Below, piece by piece: positions 5,995-37,991 of a DNA stretch of 40,647 nucleotides. The translations under genes and the position numbers were made by a program. How positions within the stretch are numbered: the first letter of the stretch is position 1; every line of letters starts with the position of its first letter. The notes under the pieces were generated by a model that did not search any database, was not told the DNA's origin, and saw nothing but the letters and a program-made list of their open reading frames with translations. Source of the DNA: a virus; UHGV virus genome UHGV-0183130. One strand, given 5' to 3'.

Positions 5995-6007
5995 AACCCC
6001 TCCAATT

Positions 6008-6075
6008 ATGCCCCACGGTGGGACACATAAAGTGTCACACCGTGCGTCATTGATGTCAACCCCACCGTGGGGCAT
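6008..6075. promoter_or_regulatory. Operator region between divergent Arc-like and Mnt-like genes
   Basis: Perfect 15-bp inverted repeat ATGCCCCACGGTGGG (6008-6022) / CCCACCGTGGGGCAT (6061-6075), each holding an 11-bp palindrome (CCCACGGTGGG, CCCACCGTGGG), flanking a central near-palindrome GACACATAAAGTGTC. Confidence 0.5.
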
Positions 6076-6113
6076 AATTTACATAATGTGAACTTTTTGA
6101 GTGAGGCAACCAA

Positions 6114-25915: not shown

Positions 25916-26605
25916 TCACATTTCTGCCACTTTGAGGGCTTCTTCTTCCTCATAGTATTCAAGAGCCATTGCCAACGCAGATTCATCAAGCTGGGTAAAA
26001 GCGGCCTTTAACCCAGCCCAGTGCCATGAATAGACACGCAACCATGTCGAACGGTCAACGCTAACCATGCGGGCCAACGCTGCACCAGCATAGTCTTTAT
26101 AGGTTTCATTATTTCTGTTTGCGGCAATTTCCTGCCCTGCCAGCCATACCAGACCTATCAGTTTCTTTACTACACGCTCCTGAAGCGAGTTTTCACCCAG
26201 GCATTTCTGATAAGTTTTCCAGACGTATTCACACATCATCACCTGGTGCTTATAGCTAAGGTCAAAACCGTAGCAGTACCGCAACCAGGCCTGCTGGTAT
26301 CCACTAAGCGCGGACACTGCCCTACGCCACGGCGCGGACTCAAATTCCGCATCTTTTATCGGCGGCATTGGCCTGCGGCGGCTGCGTGTTTCCAGCACAT
26401 ACAGTGGCGCGGAAAGCGAGTTAACAAAGCGTGGCCCCTTCTCTCCTTCGAGTTCGACGAGATGAATTCCACGGCGCGGGGTGGCATTTTTGTCTGCTGG
26501 TGGGTGTTCACTGAAAGCCTCAAGCTGCCCTTTTGTTCCCCCAGAGAGGTCAGGTAGCGCGCGGCGCAATTCTATTCTTACAAAATTCAGGTCTTGTTGA
26601 TTCAT
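25916..26605 (-). CDS. Putative late-gene antiterminator (Q-like, QuuQ-type), assigned mainly by position
   Basis: About 229 aa from ATG 26605; sits between the DUF968-like gene and the lysis cassette, matching the ydfU - quuQ - holin order recalled from E. coli Qin prophage; not similar to lambda Q itself. Confidence 0.45.
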   Translation of the reverse strand: MNQQDLNFVRIELRRALPDLSGGTKGQLEAFSEHPPADKNATPRRGIHLVELEGEKGPRFVNSLSAPLYVLETRSRRRPMPPIKDAEFESAPWRRAVSALSGYQQAWLRYCYGFDLSYKHQVMMCEYVWKTYQKCLGENSLQERVVKKLIGLVWLAGQEIAANRNNETYKDYAGAALARMVSVDRSTWLRVYSWHWAGLKAAFTQLDESALAMALEYYEEEEALKVAEM

Positions 26606-26626
26606 GCTTCTTTGCGCTCCATACAC

Positions 26627-28318: not shown

Positions 28319-28705
28319 TCAGGCGGCTGCACCCGCCGGTTCATATCTGCTGATCGTTATCTCTACCCGACCTTTCGGCACTACGGGTCCCCATTCCACC
28401 AGCATGCGCTTAATCTGGCTGTCGTCTTCCCAGACACCCGCATGCGTCAGCGCGTCAAACAGGGCTTTGTTGTAATTATCGATATCCCGGCGGCGCGCAT
28501 CCGGCGGGTACAGAGTGATTTCTACCGCTGCCAGTTCAGTCGATGGCTTCGGGAGACGTCGTAATTGCTCAATGATCGCCACGCAGGCAGCGCTCTGGTA
28601 TTTACGGCCATCAGCGCTAATGAGGTGACGACCGGCCAGCGGCCCCTTGTTAGGGGCGCGCCAGTAGGTGTTCACGCTCGGAGGGAACGGGAGCACAAGT
28701 TTCAT
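28319..28705 (-). CDS. rusA: Holliday junction resolvase RusA
   Basis: Start at ATG 28705 (SD AGGAGG): MKLVLPFPPSVNTYWR ... DARRRDIDNYNKALFDALTHAGVWEDDSQI parallels E. coli RusA. Confidence 0.75.
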   Translation of the reverse strand: MKLVLPFPPSVNTYWRAPNKGPLAGRHLISADGRKYQSAACVAIIEQLRRLPKPSTELAAVEITLYPPDARRRDIDNYNKALFDALTHAGVWEDDSQIKRMLVEWGPVVPKGRVEITISRYEPAGAAA

Positions 28706-30591
28706 GCCACCTCCTGATGTTGCACTGCACACAGTTCCGGAAGATTTGCCTCCACCAGCGCCCTGGCGAATGGTGGTGGTACCGCATTACCACAGCGGGC
28801 TACCTGCTTATCTTTTGCATAGCGATTTCCACGGTAGTCCTGATCAATAACGTATCCATCCGGGAAGCCCTGCGCTTTGTAGAGTTCATGCGGCTGCAAC
28901 ATGCGCATTCCGATATCAACGATCTGGTATTTAACCCCATCGATCGTTACCAGCCATTCATCGTCACTTTCCCCGCAATACGTCTCGAGAAATGTGCGTA
29001 CCTCACCCACGTGTTGGCCACCAGAGGTGATTGTTGGCATGGGCACATCAAGACGTTGCCCGTCGCGGCATGTTCCACGCAGTTTCACCAAATGAGAGGC
29101 AACAACCGCATGATGATCGACAGTGGTCACTGAGTGTGCGGGTTCATCCATACTGACACCCGGTCCCGTATAGTTACCGCCGTAGTGTTTAGCCAGAAAC
29201 GCGCCCACCAATTGTGATTTACCTCCACCACCAGCTGTAATTGTGGCGCTCGGTTCGTCTGCCCGGTGGCCGACGCTGGCCCCAAACTGGCGGGCTATCA
29301 CTGGCGCAACAAGACAGGCGCGGGATTGCTTCATAATGGTATGAGCAGGTTTATCCAGCGGGCGCGGTTTAGCCTGGTATTCACTACCACCATTACCCGC
29401 CAGGAATGGCGTCAGTGCAGCCTCAACAATCCCGAGTGCATGCCCATTCCCACCCGGGCGTTTTGACGTGCCAGCGGTTACCGTCGGGACAGGTTCGGTA
29501 ACGGGCTGCCCGGTTGCCCCAGTGCGGAATTTTGTCAGGTGTGGAACAGCTAACGCGTAACCGTGGGTTTTAGTAATAGTTTGCAAAGGCTCGTCCAGCT
29601 TCTGACCACGGAAACAGTCGTAACTCGTTTTGGTGCTGGTGTGATTGCACTTCACGATAAACGGCGACGCACTTTCGATAACAAAGCGCTGTATGCCGCG
29701 CGCGATCCGCTTCAGCGTGTTCTCCGCCAGCGTTTTTTTGCGGTCGAAGATGGACAGGGCCGGAACATTCCAGTCGATACATTCCGCAGCGGTACGCCAT
29801 GGCATCAGCCTGCCGCTCTGCACCTCCAGAGACTTAGGATCCCCATGGGTAACTGCAGGCCACTGGATTGGGCAGCCATCGCAGCGCATAACCATGAAGA
29901 AGCGTTTGCGGATCGTCGGCGCGCCGTAATCACACGCGCGTAGTTCGCGATAATCAACATCATATCCAAGCCCATCCACCAGCTTTTGCGCCTGCTCGCT
30001 ACCTCTTTCGATAGACAGAAACTCACAAACCTCAGCCAGTGCCGGGTGATCAGCAGGAATACCAGTGGATAGCATGCCGACAAATGCCTCAAATGTTTCA
30101 CCAGCTCGTGCCGGATCCGGACGCTGCGCATCATAAGGCGGTATAACTGGGCCAACAAATGCAGCCAAATCATCCCCCACCAGATTGGGATTTTGTGGCT
30201 CAGCTGGTAATAGCGGTCCCCACGTTTTGAACTCTTCCACGTTCTCCAGCATCATCACGCGCGGTCGCTTTGCCAGTGCCCAACGCAGAACAATCCAGGC
30301 CAGACCGCGTATCTCTTTTTTCACAGGCTTGGCGCCTTTTGCCTTCGAGAAGTGTCGGCAGTCCGGGCTAAACCATGCCAGGCCGACAGGATTACCTCCG
30401 GTGGCGGCTACCGGATCCACGTCAAATACGGATTCGCAGTAATGCAGTGTTTCCGGGTGATTCGTCTTGTGCATCGCAATGGCGTTTTCGTCGTGGTTGA
30501 TCGCAATATCCACGCTGCGTCCGATCGCCAGTTCAATACCCGTTGATGCGCCACCGCCACCAGCAAAGTTATCAACGATAATCTCACGCAT
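28702..30591 (-). CDS. DNA (cytosine-5)-methyltransferase, orphan, with large extra region
   Basis: 629 aa; motif I-like DNFAGGGGASTG, PC-motif-like SPDCRHFSKAKG, ENV motif (MLENVEEF); no adjacent restriction endonuclease candidate. Confidence 0.7.
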   Translation of the reverse strand: MREIIVDNFAGGGGASTGIELAIGRSVDIAINHDENAIAMHKTNHPETLHYCESVFDVDPVAATGGNPVGLAWFSPDCRHFSKAKGAKPVKKEIRGLAWIVLRWALAKRPRVMMLENVEEFKTWGPLLPAEPQNPNLVGDDLAAFVGPVIPPYDAQRPDPARAGETFEAFVGMLSTGIPADHPALAEVCEFLSIERGSEQAQKLVDGLGYDVDYRELRACDYGAPTIRKRFFMVMRCDGCPIQWPAVTHGDPKSLEVQSGRLMPWRTAAECIDWNVPALSIFDRKKTLAENTLKRIARGIQRFVIESASPFIVKCNHTSTKTSYDCFRGQKLDEPLQTITKTHGYALAVPHLTKFRTGATGQPVTEPVPTVTAGTSKRPGGNGHALGIVEAALTPFLAGNGGSEYQAKPRPLDKPAHTIMKQSRACLVAPVIARQFGASVGHRADEPSATITAGGGGKSQLVGAFLAKHYGGNYTGPGVSMDEPAHSVTTVDHHAVVASHLVKLRGTCRDGQRLDVPMPTITSGGQHVGEVRTFLETYCGESDDEWLVTIDGVKYQIVDIGMRMLQPHELYKAQGFPDGYVIDQDYRGNRYAKDKQVARCGNAVPPPFARALVEANLPELCAVQHQEVA

Positions 30592-31465
30592 GGGTTACCC
30601 CCTGCATGCTGCCGACAAGACCACGCGCAATTGTGATAATTTCGCTGGTGGCCGTTCGTTCCAGCCAGAGTTGATTGATGTTGGCTTTCAGCTTGTTCTG
30701 CTGAGCCTCACTCAATACGTCAACGCCTTCCACCTGGTTAAACACCAGACCAACCTCGAGAGGCCAGATACGTGACTCAGTTTCCGATGGTATGACTGGC
30801 TCCTGGGGTGCTCGCATTGCAATTGTCGGCTCTTTGCCAACAGCGAATTGAGCCAGCGCCATAAATGCCCGACCTTTTGCCTCCAGTTCTGTGCGGTTGA
30901 TATAGCTGAACCGCTCACCACGCCATGACTTATCGAATACAGCTATGGCACCGGCAAAAAACGCGCTGGTGGGCTTCTGTTTTTCGTCAGCAGGTACAAA
31001 CCACACTGGCAGATCGAACCCAATGCGCCCGCGAATGAATACAATGTGATCGGCATCTTCCGGCCACCACGTTTCACTTGGCGCGGCTTTTATCAGGAAT
31101 ACATAGCGACCGCCCTTCTCGCACTGGGCTGCTGCGTACTTCATGATGTGCGTCATACCAGTGATCGCCTGTTTCTCGTGGTACTGCGAACGGCTATACG
31201 GTGGGTTGCCATAACCTGCGCCACCCAGTTCTGCCAGACGTTCAGACCAGTCCTGGGTCAGCGCGTTATCTTCGGCGGTGTACCATGCCGGGCATTTCGC
31301 GTTGTCGTCGTCAGCAAACAAATCCAGAACTAATGGACCAAATAGCGCGTTGATCCCCCAAAACAGCAGATCCGGTGTTCGCCACTGATCGCCAACTTCT
31401 TTCAATTCGTGAGCTGGTTTACTGCGCAGTTCTGCCAGCGACTGGCAATATTTATTTGGCATCAT
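30584..31465 (-). CDS. Phage-type DNA N6-adenine methyltransferase (Dam-like), orphan
   Basis: 293 aa; catalytic NPPY motif (GYGNPPYSRSQ); overlaps downstream MTase start by 8 nt. Confidence 0.65.
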   Translation of the reverse strand: MMPNKYCQSLAELRSKPAHELKEVGDQWRTPDLLFWGINALFGPLVLDLFADDDNAKCPAWYTAEDNALTQDWSERLAELGGAGYGNPPYSRSQYHEKQAITGMTHIMKYAAAQCEKGGRYVFLIKAAPSETWWPEDADHIVFIRGRIGFDLPVWFVPADEKQKPTSAFFAGAIAVFDKSWRGERFSYINRTELEAKGRAFMALAQFAVGKEPTIAMRAPQEPVIPSETESRIWPLEVGLVFNQVEGVDVLSEAQQNKLKANINQLWLERTATSEIITIARGLVGSMQGVTHA

Positions 31466-32328
31466 GAGCGGAACCCCGAATGTTCTGGAAGTGAGTAGTC
31501 AACATTTTGGAAGCTTGCGCGGCTGGCTGAGTTAGCCGTCCATTTACCGTTAACGCGCTCAGGTCGCCCAGCGGCAGACCATTTGGTCGCGCTTTGCAGG
31601 TAACCAGGGAAGTTTTTTGGAATAAACAGAGTTGCCGGACGGAGATATTGAGCCTGCTCGCTATCACGCCAATCAGCGTTTTTGTAATCCACCACAAGGC
31701 ACAGATCATCAACAGTGAACCGTTCCCGCAGACGGGCACGAATGTTCTCCAGCGACGTGCTGCATACCTGATAGCGTGAACCAGTTGTCTGGTTCAGGTA
31801 AGACAAAACCTGTCTGGCCTGATCAGTAATCACAATCTCAGGGTCGGGTTGCGCCGCAACCGGACAAGAGGGTTTTGAAGTTACTTGTGGATCTTGTGTT
31901 GATTTTACTGACGGATCCCCGCCAGATTCTGACGGGTCAAAACCGCCGTTTTTGCCAGATTTCGACGGGTCAGTTTTTGAGGCGTCAAATTTTGATGCGT
32001 CAGATTTTGACGTGTCAGAATCTGACAGTTGAGAAAATGCGGCAGCCTGAAGTTTCGCCACATTCAGGCGGTACACGTTCGAAGCATTACGGTTACCATT
32101 ACGGCGCTGTGTGCGCGTGAGCCAGCCATCTTTTTCAAGCTTTGCGATTGCCGTTCTGATAGTGCTCGGCCCTGCGCCAAGCTGGCGAGCAATAGTTTCA
32201 ATGGACGGCCAGCACACACCTTCATCGCTGCTGAAATCAGCAAGGCGAGCCATGATCGCGACACTAGACAACTTCATGCCCGACGCTGCGCAACCATCCC
32301 ATACGTAGCCGGTTAATTTAGTGCTCAT
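31462..32328 (-). CDS. Replication initiation protein (lambda O-like), iterons inside its coding sequence
   Basis: 288 aa; N-terminal winged-HTH-like region, repetitive linker (SDSDTSKSDASKFDASKTDPSKSG) encoded by DNA iterons, conserved-looking C-terminal domain. Confidence 0.65.
   Translation of the reverse strand: MSTKLTGYVWDGCAASGMKLSSVAIMARLADFSSDEGVCWPSIETIARQLGAGPSTIRTAIAKLEKDGWLTRTQRRNGNRNASNVYRLNVAKLQAAAFSQLSDSDTSKSDASKFDASKTDPSKSGKNGGFDPSESGGDPSVKSTQDPQVTSKPSCPVAAQPDPEIVITDQARQVLSYLNQTTGSRYQVCSTSLENIRARLRERFTVDDLCLVVDYKNADWRDSEQAQYLRPATLFIPKNFPGYLQSATKWSAAGRPERVNGKWTANSASRASFQNVDYSLPEHSGFRS
31900..32030. repeat. Origin iterons (putative ori) within the O-like gene
   Basis: Six to seven tandem copies of a roughly 15-17 bp unit related to AGATTTTGACGNGTC (e.g. 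ccagattctgacgggtc, ccagatttcgacgggtc, aaattttgatgcgtc, agattttgacgtgtc, agaatctgacag). Confidence 0.6.
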
Positions 32329-32669: not shown

Positions 32670-33221
32670 TTATTTCTCCATACTCGAAGAGTTGTTCGCC
32701 AAGGCGCCCGGAGCTGCACACTCGCGGGCGTCACTCTTTTCAGCGACACAAAAAACTCGATACAGAAGCGTTACGTGCTCCTGGAACTTAGCGATAACCT
32801 GATAGCTGTTTTCCTCAATCTGACCACGCTCATCTGCGTCAATTACCCCATCAGCCGTGGCTTTACGTACAAAATTCGAATGACGGCCTATCCATTCGAT
32901 GGACTCCATCAGGCGCTGATTTATATCGGCGTTATCCAGATCATCAACATCTGCCAGTGGTACAAATACGCCCTGAGAATGGCGCGCAACGGCATCAGCG
33001 ATATGAGTTGAACCACCAGCACGTTGTAAAACCATTGCCCAGCCCAGTGGGAAGATCTGGTCGCCGTCAACACGAAGGCGGTTAAACAATGCGTTCTCTG
33101 TCACGCCCAACCATTCCGCCGCCTCGGCATAACCACCAGGTAGATCGGTGATCGTTTTTTTTATCGCCGCTACCAGCCAGGCTGGCTGACGTTCGACTTT
33201 CCAAATAGGTTCGTTACCCAC
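32670..33221 (-). CDS. CII-position HTH regulatory protein (YdaT/CII-like), function uncertain
   Basis: 183 aa immediately after cro; GTG start with AAGGAG SD; HTH-like segment GGYAEAAEWLGVTENALFNRLR. Confidence 0.4.
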   Translation of the reverse strand: MGNEPIWKVERQPAWLVAAIKKTITDLPGGYAEAAEWLGVTENALFNRLRVDGDQIFPLGWAMVLQRAGGSTHIADAVARHSQGVFVPLADVDDLDNADINQRLMESIEWIGRHSNFVRKATADGVIDADERGQIEENSYQVIAKFQEHVTLLYRVFCVAEKSDARECAAPGALANNSSSMEK

Positions 33222-33243: not shown

Positions 33244-33447
33244 TTACTGGTTAGCAGATACGCCTGTAACCTTGTGATATAGGGATGCGTCATACTTAAG
33301 TTTCCCATTAGTAATTCTCTCTATTACGAAGGCTTGCTTCTCAGGGATGACCTTTCCCCAACGACATACGGCAGGGTGTGAGATATTCAAAGCAACAGCG
33401 GTTTTAGAGATACCGCCAAAATGCTTTACGACTTCGGACTTATACAT
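33244..33447 (-). CDS. cro: Cro-like HTH repressor
   Basis: 67 aa, divergent from cI across the operator region; HTH-like SKTAVALNISHPAVCRWGK; SD GGAGG. Confidence 0.65.
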   Translation of the reverse strand: MYKSEVVKHFGGISKTAVALNISHPAVCRWGKVIPEKQAFVIERITNGKLKYDASLYHKVTGVSANQ

Positions 33448-33539
33448 AGTTCCTCCGGTGTGATGAATGAACCAAAGGTAACAAAAGGTACATTAAATAG
33501 CAAACAACAGTTACAAGCAAAGGGTGTAACATTGGTTAC
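33448..33539. promoter_or_regulatory. Right operator / divergent promoter region (OR, pR and pRM candidates)
   Basis: Contains AAAGGTAACAAAAGGTACATT (33474-33494), a motif repeated twice downstream of cI, and perfect palindrome GTAACATTGGTTAC (33526-33539) abutting the cI ATG (short-leader cI message possible). Confidence 0.55.
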
Positions 33540-34199
33540 ATGAAAACAGAGATGAAAGACCGCATCAGATCCAGACGAATCCAGCTGGATATAACCCAAT
33601 TAGCACTGGCTAAAAAGCTTGGTGTAAGCCGTGTATCGGTTACAAAATGGGAAAACGGCACGACAAAGCCTGATGGTGAGAACCTTCACCAGTTGGCTCA
33701 GGCTCTATCAACAACACCAGAGTGGATACTCTATGGAAGCGGTGATGAGGCCATTGACGACACGCGCGTCGTGCCTTTTTTGAAACCCCCTGTAGCTGTA
33801 CCGATCATATCGGCAGTTCAAGCCGGTTTATGGACGGATAGCTATGCCTGCTCAAGACTTACAGACGTGATTTCCTGGACTCAAACAACTGCAAATGTAT
33901 CGGATGAAGCGTTTGGGTTAGTAGTCCGCGGTGAGTCGATGACTAACCCGCAAGGACTTCCATCTATACCAGAAGGTTCTATTGTTATAGTCGAGCCCCA
34001 TTATGGGCAGCTTGATGATCTATATGGGAAAATAGTCGTTGCTATATTGGATGGGACATCAGAAGCAACGGTTAAAAAATTAGTTTGGGATAGCCCCTAC
34101 TCATACCTAATGCCACTGAATCCGTTATTTAAGCCAATCCAAATTGATGGTAACTGTCGCATTGTCGGAAAAGTTGTACAAATCACTCAAAACATTTAA
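33540..34199 (+). CDS. cI: CI-like repressor (HTH_XRE N-domain plus LexA/S24 autopeptidase C-domain)
   Basis: 219 aa; N-terminal HTH (ITQLALAKKLGVSRVSVTKWENG), C-terminal S24 features (VRGESM serine region, KK pair); divergent from cro. Confidence 0.85.
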   Translation: MKTEMKDRIRSRRIQLDITQLALAKKLGVSRVSVTKWENGTTKPDGENLHQLAQALSTTPEWILYGSGDEAIDDTRVVPFLKPPVAVPIISAVQAGLWTDSYACSRLTDVISWTQTTANVSDEAFGLVVRGESMTNPQGLPSIPEGSIVIVEPHYGQLDDLYGKIVVAILDGTSEATVKKLVWDSPYSYLMPLNPLFKPIQIDGNCRIVGKVVQITQNI

Positions 34200-34213: not shown

Positions 34214-34240
34214 AGAGCCGAGCATAGCCTCGGCTTTTTT
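34214..34240 (+). terminator. Rho-independent terminator after cI
   Basis: AGAGCCGAG-CAUAGC-CUCGGCU hairpin (7-bp stem) followed by UUUUUU, 15 nt after the cI stop. Confidence 0.65.
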
Positions 34241-34244
34241 ACAT

Positions 34245-34340
34245 TCCCAAAGGTAACATAAAGTACATTACTCGCTTGACCGCAAAGGTAACTAAAGGTA
34301 CATTTAAATCATCAAACGTAATCATTGGTACGTTTGGTGA
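34245..34340. promoter_or_regulatory. Left operator region (OL) with candidate pL
   Basis: Two further copies of the OR motif (AAAGGTAACATAAAGTACATT 34249-34269; AAAGGTAACTAAAGGTACATT 34284-34304) plus GTAATCATTGGTAC; candidate -35 TTGACC (34276-34281) and -10 TACATT (34299-34304) with 17-bp spacer. Confidence 0.5.
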
Positions 34341-34367
34341 GGATAACAAATGCCTTGTACCACTATT

Positions 34368-34415
34368 CTGGCGGCCCGGTGTTTTCCCACTTGTCCGGTA
34401 ACCGCCAGCCTTTTT
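34368..34415 (+). promoter_or_regulatory. Structured leader hairpin with U-tract just downstream of candidate pL
   Basis: CTGGCGG (34368-34374) pairs with CCGCCAG (34402-34408) around an inner CCGG/CCGG stem, followed by CCTTTTTC; lies inside a doubtful 77-aa ORF (34350-34583). Confidence 0.4.
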
Positions 34416-34579
34416 CAAGGCACAACAGAAAAGGGCATCACCGGGCGACGGGCTCATAACCCAATCCACCCGGGCAAAAAGAAAGCGGTCTCTGCAAGCC
34501 GCCGACCAATGCAGGTGCCCTTCTCTGTTGTGTATGGAGAAAGTTCGGCGGTTGCAGCCGCCTTAACGAGGGTAAAACC

Positions 34580-34951
34580 ATGAGTAATGACCGCATGACC
34601 GTAGTGCCAGATTTTCTTGGCGAACTGGATGCCGGCGTGTTCATGAACAAAATCGCGGCAGCACTTAATACTACCGCGCTTGGCGTTCTGAACAACGGCA
34701 ACAAAGGCAAAGTAGTCCTCACATTTGATTTTGAGCGTATGGGTAATTCCGTTGAAGAGAAGCGCGTGAAGATCAAGCACAAGCTGAACTACAGCACCCC
34801 GACACCGCGTGGTAAAGCCTCCGAAGAGGACACAACCGAAACCCCGATGTGGGTCAACAAAGGCGGGAAGCTAACCATCCTGCAGGAAGATCAGGGTCAG
34901 CTGTTCGGGATCACTGGCGCGGTGGATGGAAAGCTTAAAGCGGCACAGTGA
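34580..34951 (+). CDS. Hypothetical early protein (YfdP-like by size and position)
   Basis: 123 aa, SD GAGGG; first convincing gene of the early-left operon; no N-like arginine-rich motif recognised. Confidence 0.5.
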   Translation: MSNDRMTVVPDFLGELDAGVFMNKIAAALNTTALGVLNNGNKGKVVLTFDFERMGNSVEEKRVKIKHKLNYSTPTPRGKASEEDTTETPMWVNKGGKLTILQEDQGQLFGITGAVDGKLKAAQ

Positions 34952-35007: not shown

Positions 35008-35835
35008 ATGTCTCAGTTAGACAGCGGTACCTTCAAGCAGGTCAAAGACCTGGTTCTTTCAGGTTATCACCTGAATGATATTCATGGCCTGGCTTGCCCG
35101 ACCGCATTGCTGCCAGATGGTACTGGCGTTGAAAGCCTTGAGCGCTTTTCTCTGGAGCGTTTCCGCTTTCGTGGCGCAATGACCACAACCAGTATTGACG
35201 ACTTCGCACGTTATTCTAAAGGTTACGCCAGCGACAGTGAGCCAGCTCGTTGCTTCATTGACGCTGACAATATGACCGCCCGTTCAGTGTTCAACATCGG
35301 CACCCTGGATAATCCCGGTCACGCCGATAACGTTGCTTCAATCACCCTGAAGAAAACCGCCCCGTTCCGCGCGTTACTGCAGATCGATGGTCAACGTCTG
35401 AAGCAAAAGCAAATTGCTGAATGGCTGGAAGACTGGAGTGATTACCTGCTGGCGTTTGATGCCGATGGTAATACGATGCAGATTTCCCAGGCGGCTCAGG
35501 CAGTGCGTCGTATCACCATTCAACAAGCAACCCAGCAGGACCATGAAACTAGTGATTTCGCTGGTAAAAAATCCCTGATGCAAAGCGTTGAAGCAAGCAG
35601 CAAAGACGTAATGCCTGTGGCATTCGAGTTCAAATGTGTGCCGTATGAAGGTCTGGGCGAACGCCGCTTTAGCTTGCGTAACAGCCTGCTGACCAGCGAT
35701 GAACCCTGCTTTGTTCTGCGCATCATCCAACTTGAAGCCCAGGAAGAAGAGATCGCCAACGAATTCCGCGATTTGCTGATCAGCAAGTTCGACGGTGAAT
35801 CAGTGGAAACTTTCATCGGTAACTTTAAAGCCTAA
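35008..35835 (+). CDS. DUF2303-family protein (YfdQ-like)
   Basis: 275 aa with AAGGA SD; size and neighbourhood (before an HD-domain YfdR-like gene) match the yfdQ-yfdR pair recalled from E. coli prophage CPS-53. Confidence 0.5.
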   Translation: MSQLDSGTFKQVKDLVLSGYHLNDIHGLACPTALLPDGTGVESLERFSLERFRFRGAMTTTSIDDFARYSKGYASDSEPARCFIDADNMTARSVFNIGTLDNPGHADNVASITLKKTAPFRALLQIDGQRLKQKQIAEWLEDWSDYLLAFDADGNTMQISQAAQAVRRITIQQATQQDHETSDFAGKKSLMQSVEASSKDVMPVAFEFKCVPYEGLGERRFSLRNSLLTSDEPCFVLRIIQLEAQEEEIANEFRDLLISKFDGESVETFIGNFKA

Positions 35836-35847
35836 TTGCTCTGCATT

Positions 35848-35871
35848 AAATCCCCGGCGCCGCGGGGATTT
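35848..35871 (+). terminator. Strong hairpin (possible terminator/attenuator) after the YfdQ-like gene
   Basis: AAAUCCCCGG-CGCC-GCGGGGAUUU, 10-bp stem, followed by AUUG; weak U-tract, so termination efficiency is uncertain. Confidence 0.45.
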
Positions 35872-35963
35872 ATTGAAGCGTAATTCCATTAATTATCGCC
35901 AACCGGCGAGGGATTCGTGCAACCAAAATCTGCGCGGTGCAGCGCGCCAATATGGAGAAAACC

Positions 35964-36667: not shown

Positions 36668-36918
36668 CCGTATTTGAATATCTCCAGGCTCATCCGAATA
36701 CCACCAGCGGTGAAATCGCCAAAGGTATGAACAAAACTACGCCAGCGGTCGCCGGAGCATTATCGCAACTCTATGGCACAGGCCGGATCGTGAAGTCTGG
36801 TGTTCGCAAGGGCATTCCAACATACCGTGTTAACGATATGCCGTTTGGGTGTAGTAACAGCCTAACCATGATGTTTAACCAGCTATTGAATAGAGCCAGA
36901 CAGGGAAGCGCGCTATGA
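36664..36918 (+). CDS. Small winged-helix DNA-binding protein (MarR-like wHTH)
   Basis: 84 aa; FEYLQAHPNTTSGEIAKGMNKTTPAVAGALSQLYGTGRIV is a typical wHTH recognition-helix/wing layout; coupled (ATGA) to flanking ORFs. Confidence 0.45.
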   Translation: MTVFEYLQAHPNTTSGEIAKGMNKTTPAVAGALSQLYGTGRIVKSGVRKGIPTYRVNDMPFGCSNSLTMMFNQLLNRARQGSAL

Positions 36919-37991
36919 GCAAATCGAGTATGGAGTATTACTTCGAGTTCCCTGCCTCTCGCGGCTTGCAGGGGGATACGCTTATTCTTTTGATGAACGT
37001 TCCAGGACGAACCCTATCCCGCGTACTGGCATCTGATAATTACGGACACACGCTTGAGCGTTCTCAGCGTGAACTCAATAAATCACGCGTAAAAAATTTT
37101 TACGAATACCTAGTGGCAGCTGCTGAAAATAAGGAGCCTTTCATCATCCCACCACTGGTTGGTAACTGTGCTTCACATGTGGAGTTTGAAGAGTTCGGCA
37201 ATACAAACGTAGGCGTTGTTCGGTTCCCAATGGACGCAGAAATTAAACTTTTTGATGGGCAACATCGTGGTGCAGGTATAACCATGTTCTGCAGAGAATA
37301 CGATACACCCCTGTTTGTACCTTTGATGATGACTCTGCAACTACCACTGAAGACACGCCAGCAATTTTTCTCTGATATCAATAACAACGTATCTAAGCCT
37401 TCTGCAGCAATAAATATGGCTTATAACGGCAGGGATCAGGTTGCCCAGACAATGGTGTCATTCCTCTCCACTCACTCAGTGTTCTCCGAGATCACCGATT
37501 TTGAACACAGCGTGGTTCCGGCAAAAAGTGACCTCTGGATTAGTTTTAAGGCCGTTGGTGATGCAACTGCTAAATTCGCGGGTAACGGGGACGATGCGCT
37601 GTCTACTGGCGATATTTATGACCTTTGGGAAGCGTGGCTGAAGCTGACGGCTATTGATGGTATCCGACACGGTGTATCACCAGCTGAATACAAGCGAGAT
37701 TACATCCAATTCCATGCGGTGATGATCAATGCGTTTGGCTATGCAGTCCAGGAACTACTGAGGCGTCGCCCTGCGCATATCATCGTGCAGATGATCGAAG
37801 AACTGGTAACAAAAGCCACAATGACCGAGCTGGAAGACTTCTTCCTTATCTCTTCATGGGATGGTGTTTGTGCTGATGCCAGCAAAGAAAGAGCCACGGT
37901 AATTGCCAGCGTTCCGGCACAGAAAGCTGCAGCACAAAGGCTTGCAATGGCTATCACAGCAGGGACATTCGCAATGGAGGCAGCCCAATGA
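36915..37991 (+). CDS. DGQHR-domain protein (DndB-like / ParB-like fold)
   Basis: 358 aa with the signature FDGQHRGAGI; coupled by ATGA overlaps to the wHTH gene upstream and the Ea22-like gene downstream. Confidence 0.6.
   Translation: MSKSSMEYYFEFPASRGLQGDTLILLMNVPGRTLSRVLASDNYGHTLERSQRELNKSRVKNFYEYLVAAAENKEPFIIPPLVGNCASHVEFEEFGNTNVGVVRFPMDAEIKLFDGQHRGAGITMFCREYDTPLFVPLMMTLQLPLKTRQQFFSDINNNVSKPSAAINMAYNGRDQVAQTMVSFLSTHSVFSEITDFEHSVVPAKSDLWISFKAVGDATAKFAGNGDDALSTGDIYDLWEAWLKLTAIDGIRHGVSPAEYKRDYIQFHAVMINAFGYAVQELLRRRPAHIIVQMIEELVTKATMTELEDFFLISSWDGVCADASKERATVIASVPAQKAAAQRLAMAITAGTFAMEAAQ

Follow-up and report, generated by a model that had tools for sequence, protein, structure and literature searches.

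A conserved RNA leader between pL and yfdP in a lambdoid prophage without a recognisable N gene: a terminator hairpin, a covarying long stem and a proposed RNase III maturation step

In phage lambda the pL leader contains N, boxA and boxB, an RNase III-sensitive hairpin lies between pL and the first gene, and terminators are found early in the operon. Ribosomal RNAs (rRNAs) are released through stems that surround them as cargo and are cut by RNase III. In phage HK022 the put elements, of about 70 nucleotides (nt) and consisting of two adjacent stem-loops, stand after pL and after pR, 5' of the terminators that they suppress, and this read-through needs the beta-prime zinc-binding domain. The control of the early-left operon is unsettled in a group of N-less lambdoid phages that includes SfV, SfIV, mEp460, ST64B, phiNP, LLS and some Stx2c-converting phages, and a put-like RNA was merely suggested in a 2025 paper on phage LLS (PMC12315714). 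Here we describe the early-left leader of the UHGV virus genome UHGV-0183130, a DNA of 40,647 nt which is a complete lambdoid prophage and which we call, at its full length, the window. Positions are those of the window, and features lie on the + strand unless stated otherwise. Its pL is followed by a non-coding, strongly structured leader of 270 nt, after which comes a yfdP-family gene. The leader is conserved, belongs to no Rfam family and has no annotated RNA feature in the records examined; it unites observations that had been made separately, namely the processing of DicF, the small RNAs STnc100 and PasD, and the effect of sRNA-17 on yfdP. Our analysis results in a concrete model for it, attenuation at a terminator hairpin followed by maturation of the read-through RNA by RNase III.

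The central part of the leader is a structure at 34420-34533, named module B, in which a long closing stem (arms at 34420-34440 and 34513-34533) encloses a three-way junction. The longest inverted repeat of the whole 40.6-kb window (34400-34437 / 34516-34553) is found here. The closing stem has 21 base pairs (bp) with one mismatch, and both the inverted-repeat search and folding indicate that a purine run, GGAGAAAG (34536-34543), pairs with the T-tract of the preceding terminator (34410-34416), adding about 7 pairs for a helix of about 28 bp. Inside the junction are a first inner hairpin, CCGGG..CCCGG with the tip GGG-CUCAUAA-CCC (34441-34473), and a second one, GCGGU..GCCGC (34485-34502), which varies in length among relatives and whose base covaries as GC, AU, CG and UA. 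A small hairpin, GGCGGU-UGCA-GCCGCC (34547-34562), predicted by folding and by RNAalifold, stands close to the ribosome-binding site (RBS). The initial annotation had called this leader structured on the basis of the letters alone, and comparison with shuffled controls agrees (z = -3.8 for 34335-34585 and z = -4.55 for 34405-34585).

Structure prediction and covariance analysis across relatives had been suggested as a check, and for this we compared the upstream regions of the YfdP loci of 65 species-level Enterobacterales genomes and 80 viral contigs. In the relatives module B starts 4-6 nt 3' of the T-tract and consists of a stem of about 21 bp around a variable interior. Among 46 distinct arm pairs, 90.2% of the closing-stem cells were paired, against 30-56% in slid controls, a percentage that is inflated by our use of energy-based folds to set the register of the arms, as the compensatory changes are not. 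Changes on both sides were seen at 17 of the 21 pairs, and none of 500 shuffles reached any of the five measures. Since G.U cells greatly exceed A.C cells (73 versus 9, two mismatch columns excluded), the structure under selection is that of the + strand RNA. Further, RNAalifold run on an independent MAFFT alignment of 17 sequences recovered the stem, the two inner hairpins and the distal hairpin. The arms themselves are diverse, as in ACACAACAGAAAAGGGCATCA (Escherichia type), ACATATCAGGTGGCGTACTGT (Chania, Serratia), ACACAGAGAGAAGTGCTCCGG (Yersinia) and ACAGATAAGGCTACTGATATT (Providencia). Nearly all relatives carry the purine run 3' of the stem, as GGAGAAA or a variant of it, and the distal hairpin, usually with a loop of the (U/G)UGCA(G) type, is found a few bases 5' of the RBS, also where the first gene is another one. 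A whole-leader minimum-energy fold that pairs hairpin 1 with the distal hairpin was judged an artefact of global folding and rejected, because local folds and covariation support separate elements. Loops of the (U/G)UGCA(G) type recur in the small hairpins, both within module B (34485-34502) and before the RBS (34547-34562), and do so in relatives too; they could be a recognition site for some factor.

Module B is preceded by a second conserved element. A compound hairpin with a U-tract had been noticed at 34368-34415, and the element, hairpin 1, has exactly those coordinates and an energy of -18.0 kcal/mol. CTGGCGG (34368-34374) pairs with CCGCCAG (34402-34408), an inner stem is formed by CCGG/CCGG, and on the 3' side a CC spacer is followed by T5 (34411-34415). 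It is thus a G+C-rich hairpin with a U-tract, as expected of an intrinsic terminator, and it is kept in relatives. Lack of conservation would have spoken against it; we find a hairpin followed by T5-8 at this position in 116 of about 130 related loci, with energies from -12 to -30 kcal/mol, a conservation which rests on position and architecture and not on a formal covariation count. The stems differ by genus (for example GGCGGTACC/GGTACCGCC, GGCGGCCAG/CTGGCCGCC, GCGGCGTC/GGCGCCGC and TGGCTGGCTGAG/CTCAGTCAGCCA), and relatives sharing the immunity type show a compensatory exchange in the inner stem, CCGG..CCGG versus CCAG..CTGG. The identification of hairpin 1 as an intrinsic terminator is well supported, and the tL-type attenuator that the initial annotation had offered as its alternative fits the hairpin and T-tract well. 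A simple terminator scan of the window did not list hairpin 1, presumably because its loop exceeds the length allowed by that scan. As for its efficiency in this phage, the stop would probably be leaky, given a spacer of 2 nt and a T-tract of just T5. In many relatives hairpin 1 is longer, and these versions (loci L084, L087, L090, L118, L123 and L141, among others) include AGGAGG followed after 8-10 nt by ATG TTC TGA or a longer small frame; this arrangement, absent from the short version in the window, could be a minimal open reading frame (ORF) or merely part of a conserved internal loop.

Outside the window hairpin 1 has counterparts in small RNAs of lambdoid prophages. Rfam scans of the 3-kb region and of the 291-nt leader (E <= 10) gave chance-level matches alone, and no family fits the leader. 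In SfV, the region that ends at hairpin 1 scores near the threshold with the STnc100 model (39.5 bits versus 47), and a Serratia locus (L104) has a weak DicF match (23.5 bits versus a threshold of 48). The terminator hairpin of DicF and the close relatives of hairpin 1 share TTTGGCGGTAYCAGTTTT...CCGCCCTTTTT, in which TTTGGCGGTAYCAGTTTT is nearly identical; as far as sequence can tell, hairpin 1 resembles the terminator hairpin of DicF, STnc100 and sRNA-17. When sRNA-17 is placed on the mEp460 sequence, the stretch that runs from GTTGTGGTG as far as the hairpin 1 T-tract measures exactly 193 nt, which is the length of sRNA-17. This RNA had been mapped in E. coli K1, in a prophage like mEp460, with Northern blot and rapid amplification of cDNA ends (RACE), and a supplementary alignment of the same work contains the sequence of the mEp460 stretch (PMC7719688). 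Deletion of sRNA-17 raised the read count of yfdP from 0.5 to 47 and that of yfdR from 0 to 8.5 (PMC7719688), and the rise of yfdP is consistent with the effect expected from removing a terminator 5' of that gene. In relatives such as SfV and mEp460, hairpin 1 terminates an RNA of about 190-200 nt of the STnc100 (RF02076), PasD and sRNA-17 kind directly 5' of module B, whereas in the window pL is fused about 57 nt 5' of hairpin 1 and the body of the small RNA is absent.

The dicBF leader in the E. coli K-12 prophage Qin offers a parallel for the long stem as well. Like the leader described here, it lies 3' of a repressor-controlled leftward promoter of a lambdoid prophage, and it has a related terminator hairpin, a long stem with ACAAC../..GTTGTG ends and a long stem placed right after the T-tract. 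The first of these stems, CATAACGCGAAAGCGCATGG..CCGTGCGCTTCCGGTTGTGG, lies 5' of DicF and is closest to one of the interior types found at YfdP loci; the other, of about 25 bp, begins directly after the DicF T-tract. A 190-nt species of DicF has a 5' end that depends on RNase III (bioRxiv 10.1101/2023.04.14.536235), and the 3' end of a 72-nt species is made by RNase III (PMC9438474). Going by the RNA lengths, the former end would map midway along the 3' arm of the upstream stem and the latter to the 5' strand of the downstream stem. Unlike Qin, the window lacks a DicF seed region, its modules are different in order and content, its genes are of the yfdP type and not dicB, and the cargo held by the stem after the terminator is a different one. 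The 16S and 23S rRNA processing stems are comparable in that a long helix is built from the sequences flanking a structured cargo; here the cargo is of about 70 nt and differs among phages, and cleavage would be by analogy.

The promoter from which the leader is transcribed is real and controlled by the repressor. The pL control region (34250-34334) contains a promoter of the sigma-70 type, TTGACC-17-TACATT (-35 at 34276-34281, -10 at 34299-34304), and exact copies of the 20-bp operator AAGGTAACNNNNNGTACATT occupy 34250-34269 and 34285-34304, the latter covering the -10. A third exact copy is in the gap between cro and cI (33475-33494), and a degenerate one is at 34315-34334; five matches were reached in 0 of 100 shuffles. 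Transcription probably starts near 34311, in which case the transcript would begin with a predicted hairpin, AUCAAACGUA..UACGUUUGGU (34311-34338), which overlaps the degenerate operator and is a weakly supported part of the leader; its conservation is uninformative because relatives of the same immunity type are nearly identical there.

On this basis we propose that the leader acts as an attenuating terminator and that transcripts which read through it are then processed by RNase III, a reading which we regard as reasonably probable. Transcription from near 34311, repressed by CI, would be halted in part at hairpin 1 and its T-tract, giving a leader RNA of about 105 nt. RNA that reads through would fold into module B, a fold that the covariation bears out, and its 21-bp stem would be extended to about 28 bp by pairing of the T-tract with GGAGAAAG. 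RNase III would then cleave the closing stem, separating the leader RNA from the yfdP mRNA and possibly freeing the cargo, and the resulting mRNA would start shortly 5' of the small, protective hairpin with its RBS exposed. With 21 bp plus about 7 more, the closing stem has the duplex length that RNase III needs (about two helical turns or more). We infer the cleavage step because the two Qin stems that flank DicF both appear to be RNase III sites.

Besides the inflated pairing percentage mentioned above, several points weigh against this proposal. A CC spacer between stem and T-tract is atypical of an efficient terminator, and the rise of yfdP upon deletion of sRNA-17 could be an artefact of read-through from the resistance cassette. 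The Rfam models of DicF (RF00039) and STnc100 (RF02076) have no match in the leader of the window, whose stem is only moderately related to that of Qin, and partly so via intermediate variants. The RNase III positions in Qin come from published RNA lengths laid onto the sequence and not from a nucleotide-level map, and cleavage in this phage is argued by analogy. Finally, a model of attenuation and RNase III processing leaves the strict conservation of the tRNA-like loop of the first inner hairpin, described below, unexplained.

Could the leader be an antiterminator instead? The initial annotation had seen no recognisable N gene after pL, and our searches concur. Neither the early-left ORFs nor the 77-aa ORF of the leader gave an N homologue with Pfam, NCBIfam or PHROGs, in searches that do recognise CI, the P22-type Cro, CII and Q and that could miss a very remote homologue, N proteins being small and divergent. 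A boxA pattern matched the window less often than expected by chance, and in the search for box motifs in the leader it had no match on the + strand in 34300-34600. The leader is therefore not of the lambda N/nutL arrangement, as had been inferred: it has none of the N, boxA and boxB of the lambda pL leader and no sequence relationship to it, and its terminator precedes the first gene. A resemblance to the put sites of HK022, which had been put forward in place of N and nut, did not survive. Like HK022, the window is an N-less lambdoid phage with a structured RNA just 3' of pL. We built a covariance model from six RNAs (putL and putR of HK022 and put-like RNAs from phiEt88, CobraSix, S9-5 and HK639), in which CGAACGGC, GUCGG, GGCG-GG and CAAU are invariant. 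With this model HK022 putL scores 95.6 bits and putR 53.5 bits, but there is no match in 34300-34580 even with filters off; the best match in the whole window, of 11 bits, is in a coding region among the structural genes, and the model detected no put element in five related phage and prophage loci. The architecture differs too, being one three-way junction closed by a 21-bp stem with an interchangeable interior, located 3' of the first terminator. Nor does the window contain a second copy of the element: its core motif has a single occurrence, and the inverted-repeat search shows nothing comparable elsewhere, the rightward operon included. The reading of the leader as an HK022-type antiterminator RNA thus fails.

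A broader version of this idea is that module B mediates processive antitermination as a new kind of RNA, by itself or together with Nus factors of the host, a functional analogue of put that would modify RNA polymerase for the remainder of the early-left operon. The absence of an N gene would suit it, as would the fact that the cassette heads early-left operons whatever their first gene. Many relatives also have UGCUCUU followed by GUGUGG in the 3' arm of module B, which we take to recall boxA and boxC of rrn and lambda. A put-like mechanism in this group was suspected in the LLS work as well (PMC12315714). However, the boxA-like letters are not conserved (UGCCCUU in the window, quite different arms in Serratia) and are locked in the 21-bp helix, and the module tolerates exchange or inversion of its interior. 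To the failure of the put model, the position of module B after the first terminator and its single copy, with none in the rightward operon, may be added that there is little to suppress: the terminator scan predicts few + strand terminators further down the operon, so a dedicated antiterminator may not be needed. Altogether we consider an antitermination role for module B unlikely, and the early-left operon appears to rely on a leaky terminator.

The first inner hairpin of module B deserves separate consideration, as its tip resembles a transfer RNA (tRNA). Positions 34449-34462 (14 nt) show full identity with the anticodon arm of the initiator tRNA from E. coli, whose sequence we confirmed against the tRNA-Met annotations of all 5,426 complete E. 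coli genomes, and 34449-34465 (17 nt) agree in every base with this arm in the tRNA-Met genes that three viral contigs carry. Within the aligned group, neither the CUCAU of the loop nor the GGG/CCC stem shows any variation, whereas three pairs of the outer stem covary; elsewhere this outer stem is exchanged entirely, for example for CCGCAGCG/CGCTACGG. ARAGORN finds no tRNA gene in the window, and the similarity is limited to the anticodon arm. This also defines its relationship to tRNA-fMet and to tRNA-mimicking operators of the thrS type: the 14-nt identity in GGG-CUCAUAA-CCC is shared, but the window has the anticodon arm alone. Real tRNA genes are present in the same region of the leader in some loci of Phytobacter, Yersinia and Proteus. 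In prophages of these genera, genes for tRNAs or matches resembling them were seen 5' of hairpin 1 in loci L133 (1186-1264), L135 (2222-2300), L114 (2169-2296) and L138 (2275-2343), one of them called tRNA-Ile with the unusual anticodon AAT. Pairing of the CUCAU loop with the region of the yfdP start codon was rejected, as in many relatives that have this loop the gene begins with ATGGAA, ATGGAC, ATGGCT or ATGTCA.

The tRNA-like hairpin might be the functional core of the leader, mimicking the anticodon arm of the initiator tRNA either as a small RNA released from the stem or within the leader. Its partner would recognise tRNA-fMet, and candidates are methionyl-tRNA synthetase, the 30S P site and an anticodon nuclease of the VapC type. 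The two identities, the invariance of loop and GGG/CCC stem amid a covarying flanking stem, and the true tRNA genes in the same leader region of some relatives all speak for such a role. Yet other phages have unrelated cargo in the same stem, which must therefore work without the tRNA-like loop; the resemblance stops at the anticodon arm; the GGG/CCC stem is down to two pairs in some variants; a literature search gave no precedent for a phage mimic of tRNA-fMet; and the loop may be a simple relic of a tRNA gene. That mimicry is the core function of the leader seems doubtful to us. Slightly more doubtful is a combined scheme in which the long stem is an excision device from which RNase III would free a decoy of about 75 nt for the anticodon arm of the initiator tRNA. 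If this were true, the decoy could shield translation initiation from VapC-type toxins that cleave tRNA-fMet, or titrate another factor specific for the initiator tRNA, and the cargoes of other phages would be small RNAs that take its place, all of them carried by a common leader chassis.

The distribution and the mosaic structure of the leader were examined as well. By blastn, the leader cassette is present in 2,524 of the 5,426 complete E. coli genomes, as judged by the 55 nt at 34421-34475, which have about 90% or more identity there and in most of the matching phage records, including SfV, SfIV, mEp460 and Stx2-converting phages; LLS, phiNP and ST64B give longer, more distant blastn matches that reach into yfdP. 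An exact-pattern scan for the core found it in at least 120 viral contigs, 106 of them with enough downstream sequence. Among the matches listed, yfdP stands at a fixed distance behind the core in 82 of these 106, and in the remaining contigs the stem, purine run and hairpin are the same but lead into an RdgC-like, a YfdR-like or some other first gene. As the cassette precedes varied first genes, it is to be regarded as an operon leader and not as a gene-specific regulator. The RdgC-like first genes are those of L160, L178, L184, L191, L216 and L272, the YfdR-like ones those of L155, L168 and L237, and still other first genes follow the cassette in L190, L197, L257 and L259, and in L187; the cargo, too, is the same in these contigs. 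The parts can also be separated: a Mixta prophage has a promoter directly 5' of module B, without hairpin 1, and in some contigs another structured module is fused straight onto module B. To judge from these comparisons, the leader is a portable cassette of three parts that is spread across Enterobacterales, made up of a terminator, a long stem with swappable cargo and a small RBS-proximal hairpin.

The interior of the stem is especially mobile. In contigs with identical YfdP the arms are essentially the same, yet they enclose interiors of at least four unrelated types, and a 113-bp module bounded by perfect 21-bp inverted repeats is found in opposite orientations, with 113/113 identity, in L076/L077 and L068/L070, which suggests that the DNA between the arms was inverted recently or is inverted repeatedly. 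One may ask, then, whether the inverted repeat acts mainly as DNA, a conserved linker located where the immunity region and the early-left operon meet, which would promote recombination between phages and have no role as RNA. The mosaic breakpoints would agree with this, since they coincide exactly with hairpin 1 and the module B arms, as would the module present in both orientations. The excess of G.U over A.C cells, however, indicates selection on the + strand RNA, and pairing is kept while the sequence diverges, a divergence that would hinder homology-driven recombination; we find a purely DNA-based role improbable.

Other observations were made on the modules of these leaders. A second conserved, structured module, GTTGTGGTGAATGCGG...hairpin...CACCACAAC, has a long closing stem and a T-arm-like hairpin at its end; it is found in SfV (L001, about 2306-2430), mEp460 (L002, 2306-2440) and Qin (L150, 2452-2590), and also in L092, L095 and L098. 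In SfV and mEp460 it is located 5' of hairpin 1, in Qin it stands 3' of DicF, and the window lacks it. In the CPS-53 prophage of E. coli K-12 (L149, 5240-5610) the leader has been lost up to the RBS of yfdP, and remnants of replication-origin repeats adjoin the RBS. K-12 is thus no model or reference for the leader, because the whole leader is deleted there.

The first convincing gene of the operon had been placed at 34580, and the gene at 34580-34951, preceded by an RBS, GAGGG (34568-34572), indeed encodes a YfdP homologue (phrog_204, E = 1e-41); RefSeq labels the matching stretch of E. coli 'YfdP family phage-associated protein'. The 77-aa ORF between pL and this gene (34350-34583), already held to be doubtful, has no match to any Pfam, NCBIfam or PHROG family, and thus none to an N family. 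It spans the RNA elements, and relatives with identical YfdP show non-triplet indels there, with module lengths of 114, 113, 110, 109 and 91 nt, or wholesale swaps; it is not a gene. That this ORF, an open frame in the position of N with several basic residues, encodes a divergent N-like antiterminator is hardly credible given the missing family match, the non-triplet indels and replacements in front of an identical downstream gene, and a conservation that follows the pattern of paired RNA. We also considered, and rejected, a small upstream ORF with the AUG or GUG of GUGU(AU)GGAG as its start, since neither its length nor its frame is conserved; in Yersinia and Providencia it would be no more than start-Glu-stop.

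The immunity region around pL is that of a lambdoid phage. It encodes a CI-type S24 repressor (33540-34199, + strand), a P22-type Cro (33244-33447, - strand) and a protein of the CII/CP76 type (32670-33221, - strand), and a Q antiterminator is encoded outside it (25916-26626, - strand). The cI gene is followed by a terminator, the hairpin AGCCGAG..CTCGGCT and a T-run (34216-34241), which the terminator scan lists as well. The early-left operon, on the + strand 3' of cI, contains the YfdP homologue, DUF2303/YfdQ, a YfbR-like nucleotidase, small ORFs, a DndB-like protein and Ea22, and it ends with an ORF in the position of the integrase.

Finally, some features elsewhere in the window may be mentioned. 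The DndB-like protein of the early-left operon (PF14072, E = 5e-47) is encoded at 36915-37991. A strong hairpin, AAATCCCCG..CGGGGATTT (35834-35885), between yfdQ and the following gene could be a weak terminator or an mRNA stabiliser; on the - strand it gives a chance-level match to STnc100. The rightward operon contains large cytosine and adenine methyltransferases (28702-31465). Within the replication-protein gene (31880-32060) there are inverted and direct repeats of CAGATTCTGACGGGTCAAAA-type units that resemble origin iterons, and similar ones persist 5' of yfdP in K-12. In the tail-gene region, 6004-6079 holds a perfect 19-bp inverted repeat, AATTATGCCCCACGGTGGG / CCCACCGTGGGGCATAATT, with a spacer of 38 nt.

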